DNA of 64,000 nucleotides from a virus (IMGVR_UViG_3300009709_000001:96001-160000); one strand, 5' to 3'; numbered from the stretch's first letter, positions 29,897-63,525 are shown. Numbers and translations are program-made. Notes: generated from the sequence alone by a model not told the origin.

Positions 29897-31306
29897 TTAG
29901 AAGTCGTACTTCTCGACCATTACAGTCTTCAGCATAATGCTGATCGGTGTCATTTCTTCACCACCAAGAACCGACTTAACGATGCTTGGGCTGAATCCAG
30001 ACACAAGTGCTGCACCGACCTTGTTATAGGTCACCGGGCTGTTACCAGAACGGCCAGTAATGTTCCAGAACACGATCTGTGGCATCTTGTAGCCTGCGGC
30101 TGCATATTCTGCCTCGATCATTTCCATCGCACTAACCGACACACCTGCACCATAACCACGGCCGGAACCAGCGGTTACGCAAGTGTCGAATTCCATGTCC
30201 GACAAGATCATGATCTTTGTCGGCATTTCCTTCTGTGCAACCTTACCCTTCACTGCCGCACCCAAGATCAACTTGAATACAGCCTGGATGTCAGTATTCA
30301 TGCTCCAGCTCGAACGAGACATAGTATCGAAACGCTGCTTCAAAGTACCAGTTACCTTCAACAGTTCTGGCGCACCAGAGAATGTCACGAACTGATCCTT
30401 GAACACACCACCCATGCGTTCTGCGGTGTATAGACCTAGCGAAATCGCCACGTCCATTGCAGTTACCGATCCAGACACCGGAGTATCCATAGAACCGGAA
30501 ACGTCAACAACCGCAAGGATGTTTTCATCCGAACCTTCCAAGTAGTTAGGCAATGCCTTCCACTGTTCGTTCGACACAGTAACGTCACCGTTACGTAGAG
30601 AACGGATCACATCGTATGGGTACGCCACCGATGCGTTGATCTTTGCTTCGCCAGAAACCAGCTTAGCCTTATAGGTAGCATAACCCGATGGGTCGTGCTT
30701 ACCGAAAGCCTTCTGATAACGACCAGCAGCAACCGAAGGAACGTGCTGGTAGTTGATGTCATCCCATTCCTGGGCACACATCTTCTGTTCAACAGTGTTA
30801 GACAAGCTAACAACGAGTTGACGATACTGCTTAGGTGTCAACTTCAAGTAAGAACGAATCTTACCGGCTTCTGCACCCTGACGAGGCATCCACTTAGCGC
30901 ACAGACCGTCCTTGGCATTCAAAGCAGTCGCAATCATGCGCAATGCTTCGCGTTCCAATGGAGTACCGAATGCAACGAATACGTCGTCCCAACGACCAAG
31001 TGTCGGCACCTTCGCCAATACCTTCGAAGCGTTAACCGCGTCGGTACGGATCAAGTAACCAAACAGGTCACGGAAAGTCTTACGTTCGCCGGAACCACCA
31101 CGGGCGTCACGAGTCCATTGAAGGATACGGATCGCCACTTCAGAATCTTCTGCCAAAGCACCAGCAAAGACATTCTTGATGTCCTTACCGCGGCTTGCGC
31201 CAGCTAGGAAGAAGAGGTCCACGTTCTTATTCAACGAGGACACGTTGGTAACCGCGCCATTAGCGGTTGTTGCGGAGGCGTTTATAGCGGTGAAAAGGTC
31301 TGTCAT
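29897..31306 (-). CDS. DUF2828-family TROVE-like + vWA protein (Ro60-related)
   Basis: T.NG.....S....VDLFF, RD.RGG.GER..F, GRWDD, AKW.PR, E..MC...W..I.Y..VPS.A, MIDAS DVSGSM, FS..P, TD.Q.VF..IL, SDMEFD, P.IVFWN, VSGFS. Confidence 0.85.
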   Translation of the reverse strand: MTDLFTAINASATTANGAVTNVSSLNKNVDLFFLAGASRGKDIKNVFAGALAEDSEVAIRILQWTRDARGGSGERKTFRDLFGYLIRTDAVNASKVLAKVPTLGRWDDVFVAFGTPLEREALRMIATALNAKDGLCAKWMPRQGAEAGKIRSYLKLTPKQYRQLVVSLSNTVEQKMCAQEWDDINYQHVPSVAAGRYQKAFGKHDPSGYATYKAKLVSGEAKINASVAYPYDVIRSLRNGDVTVSNEQWKALPNYLEGSDENILAVVDVSGSMDTPVSGSVTAMDVAISLGLYTAERMGGVFKDQFVTFSGAPELLKVTGTLKQRFDTMSRSSWSMNTDIQAVFKLILGAAVKGKVAQKEMPTKIMILSDMEFDTCVTAGSGRGYGAGVSVSAMEMIEAEYAAAGYKMPQIVFWNITGRSGNSPVTYNKVGAALVSGFSPSIVKSVLGGEEMTPISIMLKTVMVEKYDF

Positions 31307-31319
31307 ATTGTATTCTCCT

Positions 31320-31355
31320 CAGAATTATGCTTATGTTAAATGCTGTTTTAACTCT
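31320..31355 (-). promoter_or_regulatory. handle element A (minimal), abutting the SD of the DUF2828 gene
   Basis: AGAGTTA-AAA-CAGCA...TAATTCT-G followed directly by AGGAG and ATG. Confidence 0.65.
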
Positions 31356-31387
31356 TTAAAATTTAATTTTACATAAATAGTTTTACT

Positions 31388-32212
31388 ATGTCAACCAACT
31401 TAACACAGAAACCACCTAAATGTAAGAATCCCGAGTGCCAAAATGAAACATATTGGCGTAAAGGGTCCAAATCAATGCAATGGTCTACTTATTGCATGAA
31501 ATCATGCTATCATTCTCATAAGAGCACTCTTATGTCTAAACCACCAAGGTTAAATGGTCCAAAATGTAAATTACCTTCTTGTGAAAATCTTGTAAATTGG
31601 TCAAGAAGTAAAGGGGTCGGGTGGAAAAGCTATTGCTCCGGTAATTGCTCATCAAAATACAAATCGGCTATTCTACTAGATGAAAAATTATCTCTTCCTA
31701 TAAAAATATGTAATAATCCATACTGTAATAATATCGTTTCGATAAGAAACAAATATTCACATGTATGGCTAGATCAATGCTCTCTTGAATGTAAAAGAAT
31801 AGTCGATCAAATTAAAATCAAATCTACAAACATACAGAGGTATGGCGTAGAAAATGTTATGCAATGCGATTCTATATTTGCAAGTAATATCAAAAGCAAT
31901 AAACGATTCAAAGATTATATTTTACCATCTGGTAAAATAGTTCGCATACAGGGAAATGAAAACCTTGCATTGGACCAACTTCTTCAGACTTATCAAGAAG
32001 CAGAAATCATTTGCGATAGATCTCTTGTTCCGAAATTTTGGTACGGTAAAAAGAAATATTATCCAGATATCTATATACCGAAAGATAATCTTATTATCGA
32101 GGTCAAATCTAAATGGACTTATAATGGTAAACCGGAATGGTTAGAATCAAACCTTCTTAAACAGCAGGCATGTTTAGATGCCGGATATAACTTTAAATTT
32201 ATGATTTACTGA
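31388..32212 (+). CDS. putative homing endonuclease (paralogue of 249-1163)
   Basis: three Cys-rich repeats; KDYILPSGK, YYPDIYIPKDNLIIEVKSKWT, ACLDAGYNFKFMI shared with 249-1163. Confidence 0.78.
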   Translation: MSTNLTQKPPKCKNPECQNETYWRKGSKSMQWSTYCMKSCYHSHKSTLMSKPPRLNGPKCKLPSCENLVNWSRSKGVGWKSYCSGNCSSKYKSAILLDEKLSLPIKICNNPYCNNIVSIRNKYSHVWLDQCSLECKRIVDQIKIKSTNIQRYGVENVMQCDSIFASNIKSNKRFKDYILPSGKIVRIQGNENLALDQLLQTYQEAEIICDRSLVPKFWYGKKKYYPDIYIPKDNLIIEVKSKWTYNGKPEWLESNLLKQQACLDAGYNFKFMIY

Positions 32213-32415
32213 ATATAATCTATATTTTTTGTAGATAATCGAGTAACATCCCCACCGTCTGGTTTTGCAGAATAGATCGATTTTCCAGATTTTCTTTCCT
32301 GAATTATCCAATAAAGAATAGTAAGTGCTTCTGCATTCACTGCTACTGCATTTACACCAAGGGCCGATGTCATCTCGCAGATTTTGGTATCATCGATTTC
32401 TATACGAAGTTCCAT
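32206..32415 (-). CDS. small hypothetical protein (possible ribbon-helix-helix)
   Basis: MELRIEIDD strand followed by two helices; AAGGA SD. Confidence 0.5.
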   Translation of the reverse strand: MELRIEIDDTKICEMTSALGVNAVAVNAEALTILYWIIQERKSGKSIYSAKPDGGDVTRLSTKNIDYIQ

Positions 32416-32428
32416 ATATTTTCCTTAT

Positions 32429-32544
32429 CAGAATCATTTTTTATTGCCGGTTGCTCTGCCAACTGAGCTACGTCACCGAAGCGACGGCAGGACTCGAACC
32501 TGCGACCCACTGGTTGTTTCAATTTTTATTGCGGAACTGATTCT
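32429..32544 (-). ncRNA. handle element B: YrlA-type Y-like RNA with a permuted tRNA domain
   Basis: handle AGAATCA/TGATTCT; T-arm GCAGG-TTCGAGT-CCTGC, then an acceptor-like stem capped by TTCG, then D-arm GCTC-AGTTGGCA-GAGC. Confidence 0.85.
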
Positions 32545-32608
32545 TTACACATTAGTCGGCCAGCCGCTCGTTAACGGGTCTAGTTATCGGCATAATGCGA
32601 AAATCAAT

Positions 32609-32712
32609 CAGATTAGGTTTTGGCGAGTTTTTGCTTTCCCCACCAGAAAGGTTCTTTGTTGGCCCGAAGGCTTTCCAAGTTGCATAATTTTAAGGTATGC
32701 TGAACCTAATCT
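32609..32712 (-). ncRNA. handle element C
   Basis: AGATTAG-GTT-CAGCA...CTAATCT-G; internal TTCG hairpin. Confidence 0.7.
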
Positions 32713-32743
32713 TTACAATCGTTCTATTTTACGTGTTTTCCAA

Positions 32744-33106
32744 TTAAATGTCAATGGACTCAACAGTGTGATTATACGTGTCAGCTCCAACAGCTGGATC
32801 TACTAAGATGTCGCAATCGATATTCATCGACACAGCATCAAAATCCTGGATATTCAGTGTTACCGTATATCCACCAGTGGAATAACATGCAAATCTCTCT
32901 AGAATCTGTCTACCAAGACGGATATCCCGAATTGCATCCTTTGCCATTTCCTCGGCATGACGCATCATGAATTGCTTAATATGAATTCTAACTTCTTCTG
33001 AATCGCTAACAGTCGGAATCCAACGAGGAACCCATTTGTTTTCTTTCCATATAAAATCGGCAGCGGTGTCGAGTTGGAAACCGCTGTAATTCACATTAAT
33101 TTTCAT
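32744..33106 (-). CDS. hypothetical protein
   Basis: likely start MKINVN; YSTGGYTV and ILVDPAVG motifs. Confidence 0.6.
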   Translation of the reverse strand: MKINVNYSGFQLDTAADFIWKENKWVPRWIPTVSDSEEVRIHIKQFMMRHAEEMAKDAIRDIRLGRQILERFACYSTGGYTVTLNIQDFDAVSMNIDCDILVDPAVGADTYNHTVESIDI

Positions 33107-33121
33107 TATGGTCGGTAAGAA

Positions 33122-33334
33122 CAGAGTGATGCAAGGGACACATCGGAATCTAGTTCCTCTGCGCAATAGAGCCTTGCCTCCAGTTCGAACTTTTTACATC
33201 GTCCTAAGATGTTTGGTTGTCTGCATATTGCCGCCCTTTCGGATTTTTATGGCAATAGCTACCCTATCCGAAGATAGGTCTTTATCCAACCTGCTCATTA
33301 CCTTTCGGTATAAGTTGTTTGCTGAACTCACTCT
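33122..33334 (-). ncRNA. handle element D
   Basis: AGAGTGA-GTT-CAGCA...TCACTCT-G; GAAA and TTCG tetraloop hairpins; TTGACG-18-TATAAT at 33354-33383 just upstream. Confidence 0.72.
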
Positions 33335-33417
33335 TTTGTAAATTTGTACACCAATTATAGTGTATGTTTAGTTATGCCGTCAAGTAAAAACCACATGGTT
33401 AATGGTTCAAAAAGACG

Positions 33418-34149
33418 TCATTTTCTTTGACTAGCCTTGTAGGCAAGCTCTTTGTCAATAAAATCCACCGCACGACTCATCAAGCGTTTATAATCCTTGG
33501 ATTTTTCCTTTTCGGGGAACAAGGACGAAACTTTCTTAGCTTTCATGAATCTATCCAAATCTGCATAGGCTTGCTTCTTGATCTGGTTAGGATCAGATAT
33601 TTCCTTTACAAGCTTTTGAATGGACAAAACCATTAGGCTCATTACTTCGGCAAATCTTGCATTAATTTCTGCAGGGCTCGCCAAGTATCGCTGATGACTG
33701 TCAGCATTGCGATATTCCTTATTTTTCGGCGTATCGTAGCGCTTACTCTTACCTGCACGGAAGTTTGACTTGATGTCATCTAATGCGTGCCTAAATTCGT
33801 GGGTCAGAATTCTAAGTAAGGATTGATCAGCCTTTTTCAAGACGCGATCGCTTACATGGACAGTTGTCGTGGATGGATCCCATACTCCATCAACTACAGT
33901 ACCGGTTTGGTTCTTAGTTGCGGGGTCGTCTAGAAGCTCGTCTTGAGGATTGATGACAATGCTAATGTCGCCGAGTGCTTCAAGCGGAGTATTCAGATAA
34001 TCCGAAACCTTTCCTAGGTCAACAGATTCATCTGGTGCAGTACCCGGTGGATATTTCTGCCTAATCATTTTACTGACGGCGCCGGCCAATGAAACAATGG
34101 CCCTATCCTCATTCGCAGTTTCTGACAAAAATATCTCTCTTAAAAACAT
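33418..34149 (-). CDS. zincin-like (HExxH) protein
   Basis: LTHEFRHALD plus Y..SP.EINAR; late motif at 34169-34176. Confidence 0.65.
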   Translation of the reverse strand: MFLREIFLSETANEDRAIVSLAGAVSKMIRQKYPPGTAPDESVDLGKVSDYLNTPLEALGDISIVINPQDELLDDPATKNQTGTVVDGVWDPSTTTVHVSDRVLKKADQSLLRILTHEFRHALDDIKSNFRAGKSKRYDTPKNKEYRNADSHQRYLASPAEINARFAEVMSLMVLSIQKLVKEISDPNQIKKQAYADLDRFMKAKKVSSLFPEKEKSKDYKRLMSRAVDFIDKELAYKASQRK

Positions 34150-34182
34150 CGTGCATCCTTAGATGCACTATTTATCAAGAAA

Positions 34183-35262
34183 TCAATCCTCTTGCTTCAG
34201 AAGAAATTTATTACTGATAACCTTGAAGCTGAAATCACCATCCATTCTCTTCCAAACTTCGCCTTCGCGAATAGGATGAATAATAGATGGGCCATCGGCG
34301 TGGGCCAATAGCGAATTGATATTGGTAATACCCAATTCCTCAAGTGTTGCATTCATGTGCAGAACCGGTACATGCTGTACCATATCTCTGTCCAGGCCAC
34401 GCGCATACATTTCTTCAAGAATAGCATGACGTTCTGTCGGAGGAAGATATTTGCCGGTAACGATATTAAAAATATCGAACACAAAGAGCTTAACCTTCTT
34501 TAGCTGTTCACGGTTTTGTGGGAAGCCCGGCCCCATAATTTCACCCTGAACTGCGAAGTTGCGATCGAAGCTCAGCATTACATCCTTCAGCTTGCTATCC
34601 ACGAATAGACGAACAAGCTTATTATCAATGTTAACTGGATCATCGATATCAAAGTCCCAGTTTCTTCCGCAAACACTTGCGATACTGTCCTTGGTATAAC
34701 CAGTAAAGGATGCGCCATCCATTTTCATGCTGACTTCATAACGAGCATCGGCATTATCAGTAAAGATCTTTCGAACAATGTTCTGACAACGCTGCTGGTA
34801 AGTCTTCGGAATGTCGCCTGGGAAATTACCACGAACTTGTCCAGCCATTTCGTCCGGAATAGGCAGTTCGTATTTGATCACACCGAGCATATCGGTCACA
34901 TCCATGCCATCCTGTGGCGGCATGTAATCATTCGGACCAGTGCAGTTACCGATTGTATCACGGAGACTCTGCATTATAGGCAAGGCAAGGCCTTGGCTTA
35001 ACTGACCACGAAGCTTAATGGTCTTGATGCGAATACCTTCTTTGTCACCAAGGCGCTTAAAGGCACGGGCACGCAGATGCTCAACTTCGGGCATCATTGG
35101 AATCAGACTATCGATTTCAAAGTAGACGCATTGATCGCCTTCCTTGAATTCGCTCTTCAAGACAACGCATTGCCAGCCGTCAATAATGGCCAGCATAATA
35201 GAATCGGCTCCCTCAATAGGAAGCAATTTATCAATTCTACGGATGGTTGCTAGTTGTCTCAT
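34183..35262 (-). CDS. RNA ligase, DRB0094/Rnl2 family with N-terminal OB domain
   Basis: MRQLATI..I....PIEGAD.I, YFEIDS, LRGQLSQGL, motif I KMDG, QGEIMG, FVFDI, REG.V.K, SFKVISNKFL. Confidence 0.92.
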   Translation of the reverse strand: MRQLATIRRIDKLLPIEGADSIMLAIIDGWQCVVLKSEFKEGDQCVYFEIDSLIPMMPEVEHLRARAFKRLGDKEGIRIKTIKLRGQLSQGLALPIMQSLRDTIGNCTGPNDYMPPQDGMDVTDMLGVIKYELPIPDEMAGQVRGNFPGDIPKTYQQRCQNIVRKIFTDNADARYEVSMKMDGASFTGYTKDSIASVCGRNWDFDIDDPVNIDNKLVRLFVDSKLKDVMLSFDRNFAVQGEIMGPGFPQNREQLKKVKLFVFDIFNIVTGKYLPPTERHAILEEMYARGLDRDMVQHVPVLHMNATLEELGITNINSLLAHADGPSIIHPIREGEVWKRMDGDFSFKVISNKFLLKQED

Positions 35263-35277
35263 GATATGAAATTAAAA

Positions 35278-35469
35278 CAGGATAGTTGGTAGCGCGGTTT
35301 TTTTATTTTCTGGTGGGTTACATGAAACTACCTACCACCCTATTACAGTATTCTTCTGTAAACTATCTGCTGGGTTCTTCGCAGAGCATATCTAGTTCTC
35401 TAGAATATCTATTCCGTGGAGCAAGCTCGTCAATAGAATTTGGCTGGTTTTTGATGCAGTATCTATCCT
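35278..35469 (-). ncRNA. handle element E (between tRNA-Leu and the RNA ligase gene)
   Basis: AGGATAG-ATA-CTGCA...CTATCCT-G. Confidence 0.65.
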
Positions 35470-35476
35470 AAAACCT

Positions 35477-35560
35477 TGGTACCCCAGACCGGACTCGAAC
35501 CGGTACGCCTCTCAGCGGCGGATTTTGAGTCCGCTTTGTCTACCATTCCAACACCAGGGC
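35477..35560 (-). tRNA. tRNA-Leu(CAA)
   Basis: GCGGA-CT-CAA-AA-TCCGC; long V-arm; CCA. Confidence 0.93.
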
Positions 35561-35566
35561 AAATTC

Positions 35567-35800
35567 TTATTTATTCTGGGTGTATTCCTCGTACCATTTT
35601 TTCCATACTGCTTCGGCGTGGAAATAACCTATCACTAACCATGCAAATACAACCAGTGCATAGATCGGTAGTAAATATGGCCATGTAACCGCAGTCAAAA
35701 AGGCACCCATAAGCATCGTCATGAAGAAAGTCACAAAGAATTGATCGGGCTTCATAAGCTCGTGCATCTTCTCTAGAATAATCCATCTCAGAAAATTCAT
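35567..35800 (-). CDS. small membrane protein
   Basis: two TM segments. Confidence 0.6.
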   Translation of the reverse strand: MNFLRWIILEKMHELMKPDQFFVTFFMTMLMGAFLTAVTWPYLLPIYALVVFAWLVIGYFHAEAVWKKWYEEYTQNK

Positions 35801-35810
35801 GATGTGTCTT

Positions 35811-36209
35811 TCAAAAAAGCGGCAAATGACCGGTAATTTCGTTTATCTTTGCTTCGTCGTTAGGACCAACCCCAACTGCCGTAAGTGTAGCAACTCCTCC
35901 AAACTCTGTCAAGCCTGCATCTTTGATTAATGAAGCAGGCAATCCAGCAGCGAGGGCTTTCTTATAAATGTCCACTAATTCTTCGTCAGTGGTAACATAA
36001 ACGGCTACCTTCTTGAAATTCCCAACTACCCATTGCTTAATGAAAGGATCAGTTAAGGGAATCTCAAATTTTGTTTCGTCGGCATTCATACTGCCAATAC
36101 CTAGCAACGCACCGGTTGCTGCATGTGCGCCTTGCGCCACATATTTCCCGGTACGCATGTTGCGATCCTTCGGGAATTTCTTCATCACTAAAACTTGCTT
36201 CGAACCCAT
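35811..36209 (-). CDS. pth2: peptidyl-tRNA hydrolase, Pth2 family
   Basis: KQVLV, M..GKY.AQ.AHA, KKVAV, I.DAGLTEF, T.T.VGVGP, ITGHL.L. Confidence 0.92.
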   Translation of the reverse strand: MGSKQVLVMKKFPKDRNMRTGKYVAQGAHAATGALLGIGSMNADETKFEIPLTDPFIKQWVVGNFKKVAVYVTTDEELVDIYKKALAAGLPASLIKDAGLTEFGGVATLTAVGVGPNDEAKINEITGHLPLF

Positions 36210-36433
36210 TATCCCATCCATTTTAGTTTGAACACCATTAAATCTTCTTCTGTATCAAACCATACACCCGAAGAATCACTGGCAAAGGTGCCGTTGTATT
36301 CCTTCATAACTCTTTCGAGATGAACCCAACCATATATTCCTTCAGGTGCTTCTCTCATTGTTTGCCGTGCGAAAGACCGCCACCATTGGGGGCAGTCTTC
36401 CATTTCTTCAGGTAATGGGAGTTTTACTCCCAC
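36209..36433 (-). CDS. small hypothetical protein (F..E.D..F.LKW family)
   Basis: C-terminal FDTEEDLMVFKLKWMG. Confidence 0.65.
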   Translation of the reverse strand: MGVKLPLPEEMEDCPQWWRSFARQTMREAPEGIYGWVHLERVMKEYNGTFASDSSGVWFDTEEDLMVFKLKWMG

Positions 36434-36438
36434 TCCTA

Positions 36439-37047
36439 TTACGCCTTGTCTTCGGCTGGCGTCAGAGCCTCAACAGCCGAGCTGTAGATCTTGTGGTAGA
36501 TGCCACGGAAGACCTTCGTCACCAGGGACTGGATCATGTTGATGAGGTCACCTGCAATGTTTTCAATCATCGAGAAGGGCCAAATCAGGATCCATGCAGT
36601 GATGATCGAGAGCATAGCCTTCGGATGAAGGTCGCGAATGACACGACGACGCTGCATTTCATCGGCTTCGCGGTTCTCGACGACAGTCTTGTCAACGTGT
36701 CGCTTGTAACGCCACCAGCTCCAAACGAGGCCGACTGCGACGTAGATCGAAGCACCAACCAAAATCGTCATCAGCGGGACGGCGAAGAAGAAGTACGACG
36801 TTGCTGCCAGGCCGAGCATCATCGTGACTGCCCAACCGCGTGCGCCATTGTGTTCGAACAAGATACCCAACAGGGCCAAGCCGATCAATGCGGGCCAGGT
36901 CATTGCAAGACCGGCGAAGAAGCCGAGTGTTGCAACAATCAGGCCCGGGGAGGCCGAAGCTGCTGCGGCCGAAGCTGCTGCGGTGGGTGCGCTTGCGGCG
37001 CTTGCTGCTGATGCGGCAACTGCTGCCGCGACAATGGTACCAGCCAT
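36439..37047 (-). CDS. multi-TM membrane protein with Ala-rich N-terminus
   Basis: about four TM segments; Y...G..WS.WRY and I.AWI..WPFS; TTGACA-17-TAAACT promoter at 37096-37124. Confidence 0.75.
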   Translation of the reverse strand: MAGTIVAAAVAASAASAASAPTAAASAAAASASPGLIVATLGFFAGLAMTWPALIGLALLGILFEHNGARGWAVTMMLGLAATSYFFFAVPLMTILVGASIYVAVGLVWSWWRYKRHVDKTVVENREADEMQRRRVIRDLHPKAMLSIITAWILIWPFSMIENIAGDLINMIQSLVTKVFRGIYHKIYSSAVEALTPAEDKA

Positions 37048-37128
37048 GTTTACCTTTCTGTGTGCGCTTCTTGCGCGTTAAGTAACTGAGCCTGTAGTTT
37101 ACCTGAGACAGTAATTTATGTCAACTGG

Positions 37129-37494: not shown

Positions 37495-37529
37495 AACATT
37501 CCTTCTGGGGTTTCTCATTATTATTCCTA

Positions 37530-37620
37530 TGGAGGATGAGTGCGGGATCGAACCGCAACCAGTTCATCACTGATCGACTACCTTTCCAGGGTAGCTCAGG
37601 CCCAGCCTGAATACTCATCC
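37530..37620 (-). tRNA. tRNA-Ser(GGA), 8/4-fold compatible
   Basis: CTACC-CT-GGA-AA-GGTAG; GGATGAGT/ACTCATCC; 5-6-bp D-stem; long V-arm; U73-CCA. Confidence 0.85.
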
Positions 37621-37654
37621 AATTAGCAATTATAATGTAATGCTATGCTTGTCG

Positions 37655-39905: not shown

Positions 39906-39983
39906 TGGTTGCGAACGATTGGATTTGAACCAATGACCTCTGGGTTATGAGCCCAGCGCGCTACCGGGCTGCGCCACGCCGCG
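39906..39983 (-). tRNA. initiator tRNA-fMet(CAT)
   Basis: C1:A72 mismatch; GGG/CCC in the anticodon stem; CT-CAT-AA; one extra nt in the acceptor 3' strand. Confidence 0.88.
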
Positions 39984-48386: not shown

Positions 48387-48463
48387 TGGTGCGCCTTGTG
48401 GGATTCGAACCCACGGTCACGGATTTAGAGTCCGCTGCTTTAGGCCGGCTAAGCTAAAAGCGC
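48387..48463 (-). tRNA. amber suppressor tRNA (anticodon CTA)
   Basis: GCGGA-CT-CTA-AA-TCCGT; intact cloverleaf; 4-nt V-loop; A73-CCA. Confidence 0.9.
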
Positions 48464-52722: not shown

Positions 52723-53067
52723 TTAAATATCGAATTTTCTACCTTTTGCCAAATTTTCTTTTGAAGGCAAATATTGCAAATTTTCTATGACATGAAGACC
52801 ACTTACAAATTCGCCATTTAGTGGAATAATGTGATCGACATGATATCCGATTGGGCAAGATAGATAAAATCTCTCAATTGTATCTAAATCTGACCATGGC
52901 GGTATTCTTTTTAACTTCGCTGCTCGTTCCTTTGCTGACTTGAGTTTAACCTTTTCAGGATATTTCTCTCGCCATTTTCTGTGGCGATCTTTATTTATCT
53001 TCAGATCATTTAATCGTTTTGCAACGATAGCTTCTTCGGGAGTGTGATACTTTCTTGGTCTCGGCAT
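52723..53067 (-). CDS. HNH endonuclease
   Basis: RAAKL.R.PPW, YHVDHIIPL.G..VSGLHV..NLQ.L...EN..K. Confidence 0.88.
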   Translation of the reverse strand: MPRPRKYHTPEEAIVAKRLNDLKINKDRHRKWREKYPEKVKLKSAKERAAKLKRIPPWSDLDTIERFYLSCPIGYHVDHIIPLNGEFVSGLHVIENLQYLPSKENLAKGRKFDI

Positions 53068-53075
53068 AGGTAAAA

Positions 53076-53387
53076 GAATGGGAGCCGAAACTCCCATTGC
53101 TATTTTGGGTAACAAGGCATAACTGCCCCGGAGTGCTGTTAGGCGAATGCGACTTCGGCGTCTGCGAAAGCAGAGAGGTCGAAAGAAGCAAACTCGGTAG
53201 AAACGTTATTTGCGTTTACTTGGTTTGACGATTAACGATCGTTATTCGTGTTGTCTGCCTTGATACTTGCTACACTGTCGATTTCCGGAGGTCCCCCATC
53301 AAAAACACACAGAATGCGCTTTTGGTGGAGGACAGGGGATTCGAACCCCTTTCCAGCCCAGTTTTCTCTAAGCTTCATACAACAATA
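53076..53387 (-). ncRNA. ssrA: two-piece (circularly permuted) tmRNA
   Basis: acceptor piece with T-arm AGGGG-TTCGAAT-CCCCT ending GTCCTCC-A-CCA (53323) precedes the piece starting GGGGGAC (53297); G3:U70; tag ORF 53213-53139 ANNVSTEFASFDLSAFADAEVAFA*; terminator hairpin. Confidence 0.9.
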
Positions 53388-53425
53388 AAATTCAGGCGTT
53401 TGCCTTAGTCCCTATTATGCACTAC

Positions 53426-55496: not shown

Positions 55497-55526
55497 AATC
55501 TACTCCTCTGTGTCGTCCATTATTTA

Positions 55527-56099: not shown

Positions 56100-56595
56100 G
56101 CCAAAAATTGATTAATCGAGCAGCAATATCCTTCACTTCGTATGAATGAATCACTTTGCTCGGATAAAGAGTATATTTGTCAATAACTTCCGGTAGTTCA
56201 AATATGATATTTCCAGCAGAATCATGCAATCGAAGTATACTTCCACAACCGGTAAGATTTACAATGGTAGTCTTCTGACTACGCTTAGGTGAATTATCTG
56301 TATGTGGGTGTATCATTGAGTTAGGTGCAATATAGAATGCATTTGCATTATCGAACTCAAAGTCAACACATTCTCTAATCTGTGTTAATTCCGATTCAGT
56401 GAAATCAAAGATACAACCAACGTAGTGTTCTTCATCGTAATAATTCTGATACGAAGTTATGTCACTTGCATTAACTCGAAATCTGTAATGCAATTGGTTT
56501 GGTACTTTTTCGAGCCATCCATGCACAGGAACACCATTCAATTGTGTTCTTTCCATTGCTTCGTCGAAGATTTTAAGCAATGCCGAGATGTTCAT
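56092..56595 (-). CDS. 2OG-Fe(II)-like oxygenase
   Basis: PNSMIHPHTD...R, IHS......R. Confidence 0.6.
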   Translation of the reverse strand: MNISALLKIFDEAMERTQLNGVPVHGWLEKVPNQLHYRFRVNASDITSYQNYYDEEHYVGCIFDFTESELTQIRECVDFEFDNANAFYIAPNSMIHPHTDNSPKRSQKTTIVNLTGCGSILRLHDSAGNIIFELPEVIDKYTLYPSKVIHSYEVKDIAARLINFWHD

Positions 56596-57133
56596 AAACT
56601 ATTTTCTTCCATTCGTCCTGTAAATCCGAGCAAGTTAATACAATCCTCGGGGAATTATTGGACATATTCATTACTGTGTGCCATTGTTCGACATTATAGT
56701 AGACTGGTGAATCATCAATGACTGTATGTCTATCCAATTCTACACAATTATCATCATAGAACCCAACATAGGATAACTTCGGCAGATACTTGATTGGAAA
56801 ATTAAGTGCAATCGCTCGTGACTCCCTATGGATATAAACTCGGGTCAGTGGATTTGTCTTAAATAACCATGCCGACTCGGATTTAATTCCAGCAAGTTCC
56901 ATTTCTGCAGGATTTAACCGATATGCATACACAACCTTCGCAAGATATTCTCTAACTCGTGTCGGGTCAGTATCCTCGGCAGCATCTATTGCGTTGAATT
57001 CGAAGCCAAACTTATCTCTTTTCTTTAGTACTCGAATACTTTCCCACAATCTCTCTTTAATGACATAATCAGCCAAGCCGTTAACATAATCCTTGTTAAT
57101 AGATATTTCGGGAAACTCTTTATAAAACATCAC
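56573..57133 (-). CDS. 2OG-Fe(II)-like oxygenase
   Basis: IHRE.R.IALNFPI, YNV..WHTV.N....PRI. Confidence 0.6.
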   Translation of the reverse strand: MMFYKEFPEISINKDYVNGLADYVIKERLWESIRVLKKRDKFGFEFNAIDAAEDTDPTRVREYLAKVVYAYRLNPAEMELAGIKSESAWLFKTNPLTRVYIHRESRAIALNFPIKYLPKLSYVGFYDDNCVELDRHTVIDDSPVYYNVEQWHTVMNMSNNSPRIVLTCSDLQDEWKKIVYEHLGIA

Positions 57134-57897
57134 AACTCCTCGAATTCTGAATCAAAGCTTTCATAGAGCTTATCTAACTTAATCTTACCGTCAATATAAA
57201 TCACGCCACGTAAGAATCCAGTCTCTAATACTCCGTGTCGCATATCAATTTCATTGATACAGAACATCTTGTTACCGGCACCGTACTTCACAATCTCATT
57301 ATTGTCAAATTTGAAATACGAGTTACCGTTATTCATATCGATTGTTGTAATCGGAATCTTACAGGCATAGTATTCCTGTGCCTTATGCATATTCACATCA
57401 ATCGATTCTTCAAACGGACCCAGCTCAAGTGGCTTGCGCTGGAAATAATGCCCTGGTACGATTACTTTGTTGTAGGTATTACCATACATCCATTCCCTAT
57501 GAAAAGGAACAATGGAACCTACATTAGTGACCAATACAGTTACTCGGGTAATATACTCGTAAATGTCCGAAAGCTTCTCTACTTCTGGTCTAACTAAGGC
57601 GGCTAATGGATTATCAATCCAATACCAATTTAGATTCGGGTTAGCACGGTTGATATAGATAAAATCATCGTAGTCATGTTCATCAAACCCATTCTTAACT
57701 GGTGCATCTTTCTGGTATGCATTAGGATCATTCATATCAAACGTCCTTAAATGAAGTAGCTTCATACATGCAGGCTGATCGGGGCCATGTATCAATGGGT
57801 GATCTTCACCCTCATACCGCATACCATCGATAATCGCACATTGCGTTTCGAAGCTTATGGTCTGCTTCAATTTAAATCCGTATTTTCTATCAATCAT
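57130..57897 (-). CDS. Asp-hydroxylase-like 2OG-Fe(II) oxygenase
   Basis: RVTVL....G..VPFHRE, F.INE....HGV......R..IYIDG. Confidence 0.6.
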   Translation of the reverse strand: MIDRKYGFKLKQTISFETQCAIIDGMRYEGEDHPLIHGPDQPACMKLLHLRTFDMNDPNAYQKDAPVKNGFDEHDYDDFIYINRANPNLNWYWIDNPLAALVRPEVEKLSDIYEYITRVTVLVTNVGSIVPFHREWMYGNTYNKVIVPGHYFQRKPLELGPFEESIDVNMHKAQEYYACKIPITTIDMNNGNSYFKFDNNEIVKYGAGNKMFCINEIDMRHGVLETGFLRGVIYIDGKIKLDKLYESFDSEFEEL

Positions 57898-58672
57898 TTT
57901 TCTTTAAGACCAGGTAATAGTAAGGTGCAAAGTCAAAATTGACCATACACATTACCGAATTTGCATATCCATCGGAAATAAATCGAAGTTTACCATGTAT
58001 TTCCTTTTCTACTGTAGATAATGCATCGTAGTTAGGTTTTCCGAACCCAAGCCATCCGAATTTACGCACAATGGTAAAGCCATGTTGTGACAATTTCTCT
58101 GTAATCTCCGAAATGGTGTATTCGTGATCGTGATAATCTTCTAAAATCTTACCAGTTGTAGGATTCGGGGCCGAAACAATCAACATTCCATTATCCTTCA
58201 ACACTTCGTGAGTATAATCTAAAAGATAATCGAGTGCAGACTCGTCGATATGTTCAATAAACTGTTGCATAAGGACAACGTCAGGATCACAGGGTAAATC
58301 CAGCATACGAACGTCGTGGTTATTTGCGTCAAAATGGCGGATTTTGTGCCCTTTGCGTGAGCCAGCGTCTACGTAGGCGTCTGTAATTTCCAGACCCGTG
58401 TAATCTAGTGTTTTTTTGCCTGGGAGATAATAATTGGTATCCCAGGCTGCTTTAAAAGATGCACAACCACAACCAAAATCTAGAACTACCGGCTCAGTAG
58501 CGGGGCAATGAAACTGAATTAGATTACAGGTAAGCATATAACGCATAATCGATGCATTAACAAACCCGCTATTGGCAGTCAACATCGATTGTTCTAGTCT
58601 TTCAAACACTTCTTTCGATCCATCGATCTGATAAGAAGGGTTAGAAGTACCTGTTGGTGTGAATTTATCCAT
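57890..58672 (-). CDS. class I SAM-dependent methyltransferase
   Basis: VLDFGCG, YTGLE, IEHI, LK..G.L..S.PN, H.HEY. Confidence 0.88.
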   Translation of the reverse strand: MDKFTPTGTSNPSYQIDGSKEVFERLEQSMLTANSGFVNASIMRYMLTCNLIQFHCPATEPVVLDFGCGCASFKAAWDTNYYLPGKKTLDYTGLEITDAYVDAGSRKGHKIRHFDANNHDVRMLDLPCDPDVVLMQQFIEHIDESALDYLLDYTHEVLKDNGMLIVSAPNPTTGKILEDYHDHEYTISEITEKLSQHGFTIVRKFGWLGFGKPNYDALSTVEKEIHGKLRFISDGYANSVMCMVNFDFAPYYYLVLKKND

Positions 58673-59240
58673 AATAATCGTAGATTACCTTACAACCATA
58701 GAAGTCCCTGACTTCTTCTAAACTAACATCGTTGCAATGTTCCAAGACAATGAAAAGCCATATACTCTGATCAGTATCTGGAACAATGATCTCGTGTGGA
58801 AGGGTGCAAGAATCGAAACGCAACACAAAGTCTTCAGATAAGCTAATGTTCGGCGGTGCGGTACGACGATAAAAATTGAAGGTTACATCATCTTTGCCCA
58901 AAAATACCTTCTTACCGATTGTAATTGTAGGTAAAGCCGTCTTTGGTAGATGGATATGCTTCCGTAAACCATATGTCTTGCTATTCTCCGAGAAGATACA
59001 AGTACCGATCTTATACTCAAGTCCGGGCATCACCGGAATACTATAGGTTGAAAGATCCTTTGTGGTCGATCGAATAGAGAATTTCTCTATTACAGAATGA
59101 ATTGCTTCGGTAGTAATGAAATCGTCGGTCTTAAAATGAGATAGAAATACATCTTCCCTAGGAATATAAGTTTGCAGTGTATCTATATCAGCAAATGCTT
59201 CGGCTTTTGTGTCATAGGTAGGTATTTCTAATCTTTTCAT
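58665..59240 (-). CDS. cupin-like protein
   Basis: KHIH.P ... FDS..LPH. Confidence 0.45.
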   Translation of the reverse strand: MKRLEIPTYDTKAEAFADIDTLQTYIPREDVFLSHFKTDDFITTEAIHSVIEKFSIRSTTKDLSTYSIPVMPGLEYKIGTCIFSENSKTYGLRKHIHLPKTALPTITIGKKVFLGKDDVTFNFYRRTAPPNISLSEDFVLRFDSCTLPHEIIVPDTDQSIWLFIVLEHCNDVSLEEVRDFYGCKVIYDYYG

Positions 59241-59970
59241 ATATAAGGTCTTTCAAAATTGCGTGTCCATCTTCGAGGATGTGTCCAGTCTTGCCTTTTT
59301 TCAGGTGTGACATGCTATCCACGGCATTGAACTCGTCAAACACAATCCATTTACTGGTATCTATCTCGCTTAGCCTGTTTAGATATTTAGTGAAGTGCTT
59401 GATCGTGTTTTCTTTATCAGTATATCCCGTCTCATCTATAAGATTAGGGATTAAAGGAGCCATTTGTACGAAGATATACTTAGCATTCTTCGATTTTAGG
59501 AAGTCCTGTAGTTCAATTACCTCTTCCTGGAAGTCATTGAGTGCTCGTTCCATAGTTAAACCATCTCTGTAGTCAAGATATGCCCATCTCTGAAACTCAG
59601 TATCGTAAATCGTTGGTACTCCGTCTTCCTTTAATTGTAAAACCGACTTAGGAAAATAGAATTCCTTCTGCATTAGGTTAATAAACCTCTTCTTTGTCGG
59701 GTCCCACACCTCTCTCAGGGTTGCTTGAGGTATTCCTACCACAACTAAGTCAGGTTGTATCTCGTCATACTCTAATTTGATGCGCCTGATCATAGTTTGA
59801 AGTGAGCTCATTGGATAAGAACTGTTTACAACCTCTAGACCTAATGCTTTTCCGAGCAACCCTGCGAAATTATACGTCTCACGGTGCTCTCTCATGCTCA
59901 GACCGGACCCATTAGGAACCAAATCCATACCATAGCAGGTAGATTGGCCGATAACATACAGGGTTTTCAT
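59212..59970 (-). CDS. SGNH/GDSL hydrolase-like protein
   Basis: VIGQSTCYG block I; N.S....S; PDLVVVG; GH....GH terminal motif. Confidence 0.65.
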   Translation of the reverse strand: MKTLYVIGQSTCYGMDLVPNGSGLSMREHRETYNFAGLLGKALGLEVVNSSYPMSSLQTMIRRIKLEYDEIQPDLVVVGIPQATLREVWDPTKKRFINLMQKEFYFPKSVLQLKEDGVPTIYDTEFQRWAYLDYRDGLTMERALNDFQEEVIELQDFLKSKNAKYIFVQMAPLIPNLIDETGYTDKENTIKHFTKYLNRLSEIDTSKWIVFDEFNAVDSMSHLKKGKTGHILEDGHAILKDLIYEKIRNTYL

Positions 59971-60716
59971 CTATTTGCCATCCTTCTTAGGGTAGGTGGA
60001 CCGATCATCTTACCATCTATGCTGGAAACACCATTAAAGGTAGTAACATCGACAGGGGCAACTGTATAAATCTCATTGATCGTATCCAAATGTGTCGGAT
60101 GAATGCAGAATGCCGCCTTAAACCCCAGTGACTTGGAGCGCAGGCAGTTCTTTCGTAGCCCCTCAATGGACAAATCTGTAAAGTCACTGGCGTATCCAAT
60201 ACAATAGGTCTTTAACATGGCACAACCAAGCACTGCCTGTGATGCATACGCCAACATCGCCTCCTCGGTGGGCATAATTCCGAGCTCTGCACTTAGATCT
60301 TCAGCTCCGAAGATGATTCCACAGATGTTTTTAATCTTCGAGAATGCTTCGTGCATGTAGTATAGACCGGAAGGTGTCTCAACAATCGGAATAATGTTCA
60401 TCTCTTCGAGTTGACCCGGTGATAACTTATGATCATTATCAAATTTTGGATACATAATGTTCTTGATCCCGAGTTCAAGGATGACTGCCATGTCATCATA
60501 GTATCCAGAATCGGAATTGATACGAACAAAGACATGCGGATGGTCTTTATAAATCTCAATCGCGGCTGCAAGATTTGCTCTTGCTTCGGGCTTGAGTACA
60601 TCCGGGACTGCATCTTCCAGGTCGAGGACTAGGGCATCCGCCTTGTGCATAACCTTCTTGTAGACGGGACGGTCATACTTGTTCATTGGAATGAATAAAA
60701 CTGATCTGAATCTCAT
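59967..60716 (-). CDS. HpcH/HpaI aldolase / citrate lyase beta family protein
   Basis: RSVLFIP, AD..VLDLEDAV...K..AR, VRIN, ETP.G, FGAEDL, IHP, DGKMI. Confidence 0.9.
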   Translation of the reverse strand: MRFRSVLFIPMNKYDRPVYKKVMHKADALVLDLEDAVPDVLKPEARANLAAAIEIYKDHPHVFVRINSDSGYYDDMAVILELGIKNIMYPKFDNDHKLSPGQLEEMNIIPIVETPSGLYYMHEAFSKIKNICGIIFGAEDLSAELGIMPTEEAMLAYASQAVLGCAMLKTYCIGYASDFTDLSIEGLRKNCLRSKSLGFKAAFCIHPTHLDTINEIYTVAPVDVTTFNGVSSIDGKMIGPPTLRRMANR

Positions 60717-60723
60717 AATCTTC

Positions 60724-62010
60724 TTAAATGTAAGTGTCGAATACTAAATGATATCTATCCTCTGGTGACGAATTGACTGCTGTATGAAGATCAGTTGTCT
60801 TAACTCGATACAGTGCTCCTAGGTCAGTCAGTGTAAACAATTTGCCACCAACGATGAAAAAACTTCCTTCCTTGGCATGCAACGGGATATGAAAACGATA
60901 CTTATCGGGATCTCGATGGTAAGTGTAGCAAGATCTGACAGGCATTCTAAGAACTCGAACCCGTCCCATCTTCATTTTGTTCACTTCAATAATCCTTTTG
61001 ACTTCGTTGACCACTTCCTCTATGTAAGTTCCTTTGAACTGTTCATGAATCTCGTTCGATGGTTCTATGGTTTGCATCATCTGGCGCTGAGAATCTTTAC
61101 TGCCGACATAAGTCGACTTGTAATGAGAGGAATCTGTCGGTGCAACAGTCACAAAGAGTTGGTTACTCTCTAATAAATCGGAGTCGTCGACAGTTGCAAT
61201 GACACTCAGGATTCGATTATTATCAAATCGATTACCAAGTTGTACCACACCCGGTTCATCATCTTCAAATATTCTTATCTTTGAGTTAACATACTCCTCG
61301 AGTTGAAGGATATGATTCCTTGTTTCGTCGTCCAATGCCTCAAAAGCTGATTCCTTGTTCTGCAATTTTGGCATGTCGTCGCTAACATATTGGTCGAAGT
61401 TGATCGAGTCGTAGTCGATAATTTCTCCCTTGCTCTTATCGAGAGTATGCCAAACTAAAATTCGATAAGCAATGTTATCAAGAACTCGCTTATCGACATT
61501 TATATTCTTAATCGGAACATAATCTTCTGTGAAACTGATAAACTGTTTGGTTGCAAACGAGATACCGTAACTTGAGAGTTGGTCCTTGATACTCTTACGG
61601 TGTAGATAAATATTCCTATCGGCTAGTTTGCAAAGTTCTTTGTAGATATCTTCATTAATGGGCGAGACATGATTCGATAATATCATAACATGACCTTTGT
61701 TAACCTTTCGGACTAGACTGATACGATGCATCTCTTCGTCAATTGGAGAGCGTGTCCTCTCTTCGTAGACTCTTGTCTCGATTAATCCATCATTCGTATC
61801 TAGACTGTATTCATTATAGAAACAACCAGGACCGTAATCTTTCAGGAAATAAATCTTGCCACCTTCATCCTTGTAGTAGTAGGTGTAGATATTTTTATTG
61901 AACAACTCACTGATGGAGTATGCTCGTGTGATGTTTTCGTGATCCTTGACAAGTTTTCTTGCATACCAGTTGCTACCTGTTCTAGGAGTGCTCCAAAGAT
62001 TTATCAACAT
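60724..62010 (-). CDS. fusion: sulfotransferase-like P-loop domain plus Asp-hydroxylase-like 2OG-Fe(II) domain
   Basis: STPRTGS..., ELFN, L.R....Q..S..I; then GRVR.L.M....CY.YHRD...RFHIP, HTAVN....RYHLV. Confidence 0.75.
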   Translation of the reverse strand: MLINLWSTPRTGSNWYARKLVKDHENITRAYSISELFNKNIYTYYYKDEGGKIYFLKDYGPGCFYNEYSLDTNDGLIETRVYEERTRSPIDEEMHRISLVRKVNKGHVMILSNHVSPINEDIYKELCKLADRNIYLHRKSIKDQLSSYGISFATKQFISFTEDYVPIKNINVDKRVLDNIAYRILVWHTLDKSKGEIIDYDSINFDQYVSDDMPKLQNKESAFEALDDETRNHILQLEEYVNSKIRIFEDDEPGVVQLGNRFDNNRILSVIATVDDSDLLESNQLFVTVAPTDSSHYKSTYVGSKDSQRQMMQTIEPSNEIHEQFKGTYIEEVVNEVKRIIEVNKMKMGRVRVLRMPVRSCYTYHRDPDKYRFHIPLHAKEGSFFIVGGKLFTLTDLGALYRVKTTDLHTAVNSSPEDRYHLVFDTYI

Positions 62011-62035
62011 GCTTCATCCCATACGTCTGTCGCAA

Positions 62036-62043
62036 TATTTATA
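62036..62043 (-). promoter_or_regulatory. T4-consensus late promoter TATAAATA heading the modification cluster
   Basis: exact TATAAATA 25 nt upstream of the ATG at 62010. Confidence 0.7.
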
Positions 62044-62085
62044 TCACCCAAAGGTGGTAAATAGTAAAACACCGAAAGAGATTCT

Positions 62086-62370
62086 ATGCAAGTCAAATAC
62101 ACTATCGTCAGACCAAACACAATTATCCCGTTCACTGACCCAACGCTTCCTGGTTTTGAGGATTATCTTGAAGCTATTGCCACTGCTGGGTTCGAACATC
62201 ACGAAACTATGACAATGGATAGTCTAACACTTGTCTCTGTCTATACCTTGTCACCAGACGAGTTCGTGGCCTATAACGAGTTACTTGAACAATTCAAGGA
62301 TGTCCGTGCTGCCGATCGTAAACGAAGAGAAAGCCTTGGCATCACTGCTGTCAAAGAAATTATCGAATAA
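62086..62370 (+). CDS. small hypothetical protein divergent from the cluster
   Basis: GTAAATA upstream; RPNT..PF motif; bidirectional terminator downstream. Confidence 0.7.
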   Translation: MQVKYTIVRPNTIIPFTDPTLPGFEDYLEAIATAGFEHHETMTMDSLTLVSVYTLSPDEFVAYNELLEQFKDVRAADRKRRESLGITAVKEIIE

Positions 62371-62382
62371 ATTTCCGGCCAT

Positions 62383-62418
62383 AAAAAAAGCTCCTAGCCA
62401 TTGAGACTAGGAGCTTTT
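62383..62418. terminator. bidirectional intrinsic terminator
   Basis: A7-GCTCCTAG-loop-CTAGGAGC-T4. Confidence 0.8.
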
Positions 62419-62431
62419 CCTTTTATTAAAT

Positions 62432-62520
62432 CAGAATTCTTGTATCAGCGTCGCAGCCGAAGCCTAACACCGACAGGGATCGAACCTGCTATATCCAAAG
62501 GATGTTGCTGGAAGAATTCT
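62432..62520 (-). ncRNA. handle element F (T-arm plus TTCG-capped stem)
   Basis: AGAATTC-TTC-CAGCA...GAATTCT-G; GCAGG-TTCGATC-CCTGT. Confidence 0.72.
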
Positions 62521-62532
62521 TTAGAAAATAAA

Positions 62533-62864
62533 TTAACTGTCCTGTAAGCGGAGTTCTGTGCCCTTGCGGGTGACAATCATTCATCTACAGTTACCTGTCC
62601 TCCCCGGCTTCGCTTCCGGATCATAGGTGCCACAACCCGTTCCCTCGGCGAGCAGCGTCAGCGAGAACTGTTTGTGTTGCTGCGGAGTCGTTGTGGTGCG
62701 AACGTGGTATGAACGTATAGTCTAGGGTGACACGCACCTGGGACCATTATATCCTTTTTCTTAAGGCGCTCTATAGCGTATACCACTCCCACAGAGCGAC
62801 AAGCCCTGCTCTGTGCAGCCCCGACTTTCCTCTAGCTTGCGCCAGCGATTGTCCGGACAATTAA
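62533..62864 (-). ncRNA. rnpB: RNase P RNA
   Basis: P1 TTAATTGTCC/GGACAGTTAA; P2 GACAATC/GATTGTC; CR-I GAGGAAAGTC; CR-V ACAGAACTCCGCTTA with compensatory P4 pairing. Confidence 0.9.
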
Positions 62865-62867
62865 ACC

Positions 62868-62944
62868 TGGTACCCCGAGTCGGATTCGAACCGACAACCA
62901 ACGGATTTTAAATCCATCCGCACTACCGATTAGCGTATAGGGGC
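62868..62944 (-). tRNA. tRNA-Leu(TAA) with short variable loop
   Basis: ATGGA-TT-TAA-AA-TCCGT; 5-nt V-loop; A73-CCA. Confidence 0.85.
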
Positions 62945-63091
62945 TTCGTCTTTGTTATCGTCTTCCCTCATATCAGGATGAGTCGGCTCGTCTTTCTTCT
63001 TACCGAAAATCTTTTCCCAACCTTCTCGGTACTTATCATTATTGGATTTCGATTTTAATTCGTCACCCGTTACATCATTTCTGCTTGTCAT
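62930..63091 (-). CDS. small hypothetical protein
   Basis: read by hand: MTSRNDVTGDELKSK..NDKYREGWEKIFGKK; stop codon inside tRNA-Leu. Confidence 0.6.
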   Translation of the reverse strand: MTSRNDVTGDELKSKSNNDKYREGWEKIFGKKKDEPTHPDMREDDNKDEAPIR

Positions 63092-63303
63092 AGTTCTAAA
63101 TTAGATCGATATGCTATCAACTTAACCCCTCTAATAAGTGCCCTAGGATAGTTGGCGTGGGACGAGAAGAGAGTCAATATGTCGAGTGACTCTATACATT
63201 TCCTGTTGATACACGGTTTCGTTTGACGGCGACTACTAAAACTTCGTCTCGAACATATCGAATGTCAAATTTCAATACCATCATCTAAGATGATACAGAA
63301 TAG

Positions 63304-63395
63304 TGGAGGCCAGGGATGGATTCGAACCACCGATGAATACTAAGTAGATAATTGCTTTGCAGGCAAGTGCCTTCGACCGCTTGGACTACCTGGCC
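63304..63395 (-). tRNA. tRNA-Cys(GCA) with long variable region
   Basis: loop CT-GCA-AA; U73-CCA; 19-nt V region. Confidence 0.85.
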
Positions 63396-63457
63396 AATGT
63401 TAAAACGGCGTAGCAATCAACCGCGTCAGGAGCTACGATATACGCCATATATTAAAT

Positions 63458-63525
63458 CAGAATGCGTTTCTTTATGGTCAAATTGGAAGTTTGATTTTCT
63501 TGATTATTTTTGCTGAATACATTCT
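63458..63525 (-). ncRNA. handle element G (anticodon-stem-loop payload)
   Basis: AGAATGT-ATT-CAGCA...GCATTCT-G; TCAAA-CT-TCC-AA-TTTGA. Confidence 0.7.

Follow-up and report, generated by a model that had tools for sequence, protein, structure and literature searches.

Handle elements in a phage tRNA region

The window analysed here, 64,000 nucleotides (nt) long, comprises bases 96001-160000 of a 385,394-bp metagenomic phage genome with terminal repeats (IMGVR_UViG_3300009709_000001). On its minus strand are 23 tRNA genes, a permuted transfer-messenger RNA (tmRNA), a gene for a 469-amino-acid protein with DUF2828 and DUF7788 domains and seven non-coding elements, A to G, which share a common frame. 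In each of them, a 7-nt 5' arm beginning with AG is followed by 3 nt, the box CNGCA, a variable payload, the 7-nt complement of the arm ending in CT, and a G. We call this frame the handle. A sequence-only reading of the window had listed these seven minus-strand elements, and all of them read as it described; it had also placed five of the seven between the DUF2828 gene and an RNA ligase gene, which is correct. It further proposed that the protein resembles Ro60, binds the handle and is loaded with interchangeable RNA modules. As far as computation could probe this proposal, all of it was borne out. The handle defines a conserved RNA family linked, in a strand-specific manner, to the DUF2828 gene, the product of this gene is predicted to have the Ro60 fold, and the handle RNAs are probably its partner RNAs. 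Features are given in window positions unless marked as genome positions.

29897..31306, minus strand: DUF2828/DUF7788 gene, 469 amino acids, with a DUF2828 helical-repeat part and a DUF7788 vWA domain in which the residues of the MIDAS (metal ion-dependent adhesion site) are kept
31320..31355, minus strand: element A, minimal 36-nt handle with no payload; 13 nt, which include AGGAG, separate its end from the DUF2828 ATG
32429..32544, minus strand: element B, box CCGCAA and a permuted tRNA-like body (T arm, loop-closed acceptor-like hairpin, D arm), a YrlA-like cargo
32609..32712, minus strand: element C, handle and 104-nt body, 3' half conserved among relatives
33122..33334, minus strand: element D, handle and 213-nt multi-hairpin body, conserved among relatives
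34183..35262, minus strand: RNA ligase of the NgrRnl (Naegleria) type, N-terminal OB domain and nucleotidyltransferase, directly downstream of element E
35278..35469, minus strand: element E, box CUGCAU and 192-nt body, 7 nt after tRNA-Leu(CAA) and 15 nt before the RNA ligase ATG
62432..62520, minus strand: element F, handle and 89-nt body, a T arm and closed hairpin forming a partial tRNA mimic
63458..63525, minus strand: element G, handle and a hairpin of 5 bp with a 7-nt loop, anticodon-loop signature CUUCCAA, between tRNA-Tyr and tRNA-Cys
Genome 167472-167589, minus strand: element H, beyond the window end
Genome 167605-167707, minus strand: twelfth copy, with one stem mismatch, in tandem with H (genome 167472-167707, L091:7472-7707)
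Genome 168203-168251, same strand as the window elements: element I, beyond the window end
Genome 172599-172653, same strand as the window elements: element J, beyond the window end
Genome 172963-173016, same strand as the window elements: element K, beyond the window end

Heads of the form AG-N5-N3-CNGCA occur 18 times on the minus strand of the window and 11 times on its plus strand; 7 of the former and none of the latter are closed by a 7-bp complement and a G. One extra minus-strand match, at 3457-3667, is apparently due to chance. Over the whole 385-kb genome the pattern gave 15 matches, while 20 Markov-shuffled genomes gave 3.7 on average (range 1-6). Of the 15, eleven fall on one strand inside 46 kb (genome 127320-173016), where about 0.2 would be expected by chance. 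A relaxed scan of the genome, allowing any first pair and one mismatch, returned about 50 matches per strand, which is noise, and the sole credible one was that at 167605-167707; with it, the genome holds 12 handle copies, 11 exact and one with a single stem mismatch.

The handle can be written as a 7-bp closing stem, NUA and CAGCAA, with a 3' side rich in A and a G at the end. Positions that the search did not enforce are kept in 136 distinct instances: U at nt 9 in 92%, A at nt 12 in 83% and A at nt 16 in 84%. A U-A pair stands at stem position 5 in 80% of the same instances, and past the box the sequence is poor in G and rich in A. In relatives' copies the first stem pair varies (A-U, U-A or G-C) and the second is always G-C. 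The sequence-only reading had taken the differing stems with kept pairing as covariation. Stems do differ and pairing is kept, but the instances were picked for pairing, so that the 100% pairing and the covariation are partly circular. Because of this selection, it is the strand asymmetry and the conserved unenforced positions that provide independent evidence. Handle stems are nearly always perfectly Watson-Crick; the count of single departures (10 G-U versus 14 A-C) is contaminated by real heads that close by chance, and is uninformative on RNA versus DNA pairing. A mobile element or inverted repeat was ruled out, as the arms vary among copies yet pairing is kept, and orthologous copies are found at orthologous places.

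Linkage to the DUF2828 gene and predicted fold of its product

Handles were searched for in 80 metagenomic loci (1.32 Mb) coding for homologues of the 469-amino-acid protein, with 46-81% identity. The pattern of the sequence-only reading gave 156 matches on the strand of the gene versus 6 on the opposite strand, the latter being about chance level. With a strict form (NG-N5, NUN, CNGCAA, a perfect 7-bp stem, G), the figures were 139 versus 0. A covariance model, R1, gave 103 versus 1 at E<=0.1, counts that are lower bounds because the model, built from 29 short copies, detects short payloads only and misses elements B to F, which have long inserts.

At loci without a tRNA within 10 kb, a handle copy lies 177-364 nt past the stop codon of the gene (tRNA-less loci with a copy: L027, L030-L033, L036, L039, L056, L060-L062, L064, L077 and L078). 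In mycobacteriophage Rumpelstiltskin (cluster L; 33% protein identity), where the gene has no tRNA nearby, the 370-nt gap after gp54 is occupied by three copies in tandem. The gene is directly flanked by handle copies in Listeria LP-064, Campylobacter QDYZ, Staphylococcus S-CoN_Ph3 and a Felix O1-type coliphage (in tandem), and KVP40 has copies in unannotated gaps of its tRNA cluster. A search of the whole records of five DUF2828-positive phages (668 kb) gave 11 matches, all in the gene or tRNA neighbourhood. Conversely, no handle was detected at E<=0.01 in five tRNA-rich, DUF2828-negative phages (T4, T5, Bxz1, S-PM2 and 44RR2.8t; 817 kb), and the strict box had zero matches in the full records of T4, T5, S-PM2 and 44RR2.8t. 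The association between handle and gene spans phages of Proteobacteria, Firmicutes, Actinobacteria and Campylobacter, and the handle is linked to the DUF2828 gene rather than to tRNA clusters. The co-occurrence with DUF2828 suggested beforehand was thus recovered both with R1 and with the strict box.

The protein itself matches Pfam DUF7788 (PF25043) with 172.7 bits (cut-off 27.1) and DUF2828 (PF11443) with 93.6 bits (cut-off 29), and belongs to PHROG 850, 'RNA-binding protein'. Pfam TROVE (PF05731) gave no match to it even at E<=10, and a profile search of the PDB reached TROVE chains at the MIDAS stretch only (E 2.4e-4). An AlphaFold2 model was built with 28 homologues (pLDDT 80.3, pTM 0.80) and aligned with VIA-align to Ro60 chain 1yvp_A, with a Z of 20.2 and a root-mean-square deviation of 3.8 A over 400 residues. 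The ten best chains were all Ro60/TROVE and the match spans the whole length, whereas vWA-only chains had Z<=10.8; Foldseek gave E values of 1.7e-10 to 4e-6 against Ro60 chains. The Ro60 likeness put forward from the sequence is therefore upheld by the predicted structure, in which the protein is a helical-repeat ring closed by a C-terminal vWA domain. Residues D268, S270, S272, T338 and D370, invariant in the 28 homologues, are those that we take to be the MIDAS (DxSxS, T, D), from what is generally known of vWA domains.

The Ro-like nature of the protein is not new, because GenBank curators already annotate cluster L homologues as 'Ro-like RNA binding protein'. Matches in the ESM Atlas were to viral DUF2828 clusters only. 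Homologues are found in at least 711 sequenced phages, including much-used laboratory phages such as KVP40, Felix O1-type coliphages, Listeria and Staphylococcus phages of the therapeutic type, and cluster L mycobacteriophages; 120 of the matches are to Escherichia phages, Felixounaviruses among them.

Payloads, relatives and a possible ribonucleoprotein

Inspection of the payloads supports a modular and largely tRNA-derived make-up. A T arm is present in 38 of the 136 distinct relatives, mostly in permuted order, and two relatives have whole tRNA-order folds in which the handle stem serves as acceptor stem. About 28 of the 136 contain a 5-bp stem with a 7-nt loop of anticodon form, compared with 2.5% of shuffled payloads; UGU is the commonest anticodon-like triplet, and UUU, GUA, GGA and UCC also occur. 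Elements G and K carry such anticodon-arm look-alikes, and the bodies of C and D are conserved among relatives with compensatory changes. Modules of the kinds that had been proposed were seen, as permuted tRNA bodies, anticodon-arm look-alikes and multi-hairpin bodies.

Element A (18.2 bits against R1, E 0.034) is a candidate operator or processing site on the DUF2828 mRNA. Short or payload-free handles also stand 10-16 nt before the gene start at L003, L004, L006, L009, L011, L012, L014-L016, L020, L021 and L023-L025, and at KVP40-type loci short handles overlap the gene start. Orthologues of element B in relatives keep the CCGCA box, and orthologues of E with the identical stem AGGATAG are found at L004, L020 and L021. 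In an alignment of 11 orthologues of element C, blocks of sequence are conserved and hairpins are maintained. The 3' half of C, which is conserved, contains a 5-bp hairpin with a 7-nt loop, UGGAGGG, which is Shine-Dalgarno-like, and then a conserved AAAAACUCGCCA. For element D, 12 orthologues were aligned and 12 of the 25 predicted pairs show compensatory changes; the pairs include a 5-bp hairpin with a 7-nt loop and a long-range helix. Element G scored 26 bits against R1 (E 1.3e-4). Element H, outside the window, is a complete permuted tRNA-like fold: its anticodon-like arm reads GUA, and T arm, closed acceptor stem and D arm are all present.

Ro60 with its Y RNAs is a classic ribonucleoprotein (RNP) particle, of which the range of functions is still unclear. 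The present system resembles it in its ring protein, as modelled, with helical repeats and a vWA/MIDAS part, in the small RNAs encoded alongside, and in its proximity to RNA ligase and tRNA genes. As in Y RNAs, the RNA ends are joined by a terminal stem with a conserved motif on the 5' side, and as in YrlA a permuted tRNA-like module (T arm, closed acceptor-like stem, D arm) is present in elements B and H, and partly in F. Bacterial Y RNAs were found through rsr-yrlA synteny, and the YrlA motif GNCGAAN0-1G near the 5' end is the proposed contact with Rsr (PMC4201824). Canonical bacterial and phage Y RNAs have GNCGAA or CGAA (PMC4201824, PMC12135203), and the Ro60 of Thermus phage phiLo binds two adjacent Y-like RNAs, Yrl1 and Yrl2 (PMC12135203).

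The differences concern both partners. All elements have NUA-C[ACU]GCA(A) after the 7-bp stem, instead of GNCGAA or CGAA in a bulged helix. Element B matches the Rfam YrlA model (RF02553) with 41.9 bits (E 4.7e-7) at 32450-32510, over model positions 24-84 of 114 only, that is, in the tRNA-like core of YrlA and not in its stem. The YrlA gathering score (69 bits, whole model) is reached by no element, and beyond B no window element matches at E<=10; Rfam YrlA also matches L067:9848-9961. The earlier view that the handle is unlike the canonical Ro site thus stands, with CAGCAA in place of GNCGAAN0-1G and the YrlA match of B on its tRNA-like module only. Furthermore, there are up to 12 copies per genome, many of them minimal (33-65 nt) or with an anticodon-arm look-alike only, unlike Y RNAs, and the protein has no TROVE sequence membership and 12-16% identity to solved Ro60s.

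The sequence-only reading knew of no description of this handle. A very similar one is in fact described, in the Class I RNAs of Dictyostelium. In scans of 58-68 kb against all 4227 Rfam families, the Class I model RF01414 matched handle elements and nothing else. The best two relatives scored 35.0 and 34.7 bits (E 0.007-0.008), J 26.0, K 24.1, and further matches 23.1 and 22.7; every match is below the gathering score of 41.5, though all alignments are full-length. In the Class I consensus, a 6-bp stem that begins with G is followed by CUUACAGCAA, a middle part rich in A, the 3' arm and UG, the same layout as in the phage handle. Both share a stem joining the ends, an invariant 5' G, a single-stranded motif ending UACAGCAA right after the 5' arm, a variable A-rich middle, a 3' CUG and a length of about 55-60 nt. 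Compared with Class I, the phage RNAs have 1 nt less in the spacer and one more pair at the outer end of the stem. Class I RNAs bind the RRM protein Rnp1A, were reported absent outside Dictyostelia, and are transcribed singly from an own DUSE promoter about 60 nt upstream (PMC7919456). Their genes are eukaryotic nuclear genes, whereas the phage copies lie inside operons, 7-11 nt from tRNAs or other copies. The likeness may reflect common descent or convergence. Our search of the literature found no paper describing phage handle RNAs or their pairing with this protein.

In our best reading, the Ro60/Y-RNA particle has a second branch, hitherto undescribed, and the present system is that branch, new both in its protein family and in its handle. 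We consider it likely that the handle RNAs are small RNAs docked by the Ro60-like DUF2828 protein via the handle, with the tRNA-like bodies as effectors. Transcription and processing, direct binding, a contact at CAGCAA and all functions downstream are what we infer in this reading. The elements would be small non-coding RNA genes, transcribed within the phage tRNA operons and then excised. Each RNA would consist of a free body and a handle, the latter comprising a 7-bp end-joining helix with G-C as second pair, a single-stranded NUA-CAGCAA on the 5' side, a 3' side rich in A and a 1-nt 3' G overhang. The handle would be the dock for the DUF2828 and vWA ring, as the conserved stem of Y RNAs docks Ro60. 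The bodies, whether permuted tRNA elbows of the YrlA type, anticodon-arm look-alikes, whole tRNA-like folds or other conserved sets of hairpins, may show tRNA-like surfaces to tRNA-directed host nucleases or defence proteins, to PNPase-type exonucleases or to the phage RNA ligase. They might gate, tether or decoy, as Y RNAs do. Through the payload-free copy before its start codon, the protein could sense or repress its own mRNA.

Several points weigh against this interpretation. The loci were sampled by presence of DUF2828, so that the co-occurrence is mainly one-directional, with five genomes as negative controls. In this phage, copies are spaced over 46 kb of tRNA region and are not adjacent to the gene alone. 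The 7-bp stem with its 1-nt overhang resembles the acceptor end of a tRNA, and could reflect processing and not protein binding. Finally, the nearest described RNAs, Class I, have as partner the RRM protein Rnp1A and not a Ro-like protein (PMC7919456).

This last point leads to the alternative that the RNAs are real but that their direct partner is another protein, an RRM-type or tRNA-binding factor of host or phage, DUF2828 being co-inherited via a shared pathway. The near-identity of the Class I handle, and the matches of RF01414 to phage elements, speak in its favour. However, in phages of four bacterial phyla every locus has DUF2828 as the sole gene selected for, while neighbouring genes vary; the tight same-strand adjacency, including a copy on the leader of the gene, mirrors rsr-yrlA; and the DUF2828 protein has an RNA-binding fold, as predicted. 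We regard this alternative as unlikely.

The acceptor-like stem and overhang would also fit with handles that are processing or punctuation signals of tRNA-operon transcripts, mimics of the acceptor stem that RNase P, RNase Z or RNase E would cut, separating tRNAs from mRNAs and having no role of their own. Spacing in this genome is compatible with such a role, since copies start 7-10 nt past the CCA of a tRNA and end 9-19 nt ahead of an ATG or tRNA, and so are the two relatives in which the handle stem is the acceptor stem of a whole tRNA-like fold. Nevertheless, elements adjoin DUF2828 where no tRNA is near, none was found in the five tRNA-rich phages devoid of DUF2828, the CAGCAA box and conserved bodies are needless for such cutting, and the Class I RNAs, whose handle is the same, each have a promoter of their own and are transcribed singly (PMC7919456). 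A role in punctuation alone is, to our mind, quite improbable. Even less credible are cis-acting leaders controlling translation or stability of the following open reading frame (ORF), for although an ATG follows A, B, D, E and G at 9-15 nt, with A on the DUF2828 leader, tRNA genes and not ORFs follow F, H and J, tandem arrays in other phages have 8-11-nt spacers and no ORFs between copies, and the bodies mimic tRNA parts.

A bolder extension of the docking by DUF2828, which we hold to be rather doubtful, is that phage handle RNAs and Class I RNAs are the same kind of molecule, both ligands of DUF2828-type proteins. They would then form an ancient second Ro/Y-type RNP of phages and eukaryotes, in which the tRNA-part cargoes of phages (anticodon arms with UGU, UUU, GUA and others; elbows) would counter tRNA-directed defences as decoys or adaptors. 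The Class I match is, in any case, a testable lead for an RNA class of which the mechanism has been open since 2004.

The proposed docking of handle RNAs by the DUF2828 protein points to a sister system of Ro60 and its Y RNAs, one whose protein family escapes recognition by sequence and whose RNA docking motif is different. Its modular design, one handle with many tRNA-like cargoes, is directly testable. It also offers a likely identity for many unannotated gaps in phage tRNA clusters. T4 has small stable non-tRNA RNAs in its tRNA cluster, species 1 and 2 (rnaC and rnaD), which are processed with the tRNAs; T4 differs in having neither DUF2828 nor any handle match. In the Felix O1-type coliphage Bas63, gp130 is a Ro60-like protein encoded directly beside tRNA genes, which counters the Ppl defence (PMC11482910). 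The authors of this preprint, on PhageMaP, guess that some 'tRNAs' next to gp130 are Y RNAs, and identified no partner RNAs (PMC11482910). Judging from the 120 Escherichia-phage matches, which include Felixounaviruses, gp130 is presumably a DUF2828 homologue, and the handle RNAs would provide a candidate RNA ligand for a protein implicated in countering bacterial defence (PMC11482910).

Genomic neighbourhood

A megablast search of GenBank phages with the region found no near relative. The product of the RNA ligase gene has the Pfam domains PHA02142 OB (PF21189) and RNA_ligase (PF09414), matches PDB 5cot over its full length (residues 2-359, E 2.2e-68) and falls in PHROG 968. We see this ligase as context for the handle system, and possibly as its functional partner. 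On the minus strand, the island is flanked by a DNA/RNA non-specific endonuclease (28669-29469) and a PTH2-type peptidyl-tRNA hydrolase (35811-36221). Together with the NgrRnl-type ligase, these flanking genes mark the neighbourhood as one of translation and RNA repair. Between elements A and B lies the sole plus-strand gene of that stretch (31388-32212), a DUF7487 gene with weak PHROG matches to endonuclease and homing endonuclease, which may be an inserted homing endonuclease.

The permuted tmRNA, of the two-piece type, is at 53181-53384 on the minus strand (ARAGORN, 53048-53415; Rfam RF04321, 81.5 bits). A minus-strand tRNA at 48387-48463 has the anticodon CUA; ARAGORN labels it tRNA-Pyl and it is of the amber-suppressor type, which hints at TAG recoding in part of the phage. 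A further minus-strand tRNA, at 39910-39982 (Rfam, 57.5 bits), is missing from the ARAGORN list.

Two large RNAs were encountered beside handle RNAs. A full-length GOLLD RNA (RF02032, 212 bits, gathering score 150) is encoded on the minus strand at genome 160815-161233 (L091:815-1233), about 0.8 kb past the window end, in the tRNA region that it shares with the handle RNAs. In Listeria phage LP-064, a ROOL-like RNA (RF03087) at L086:6429-6980 scored 87.4 bits, short of the gathering score (99.1). It is situated upstream of the DUF2828 gene and a tandem trio of handle RNAs, at a distance of about 640 nt. The neighbourhoods of handle RNAs are shared with large ornate RNAs.

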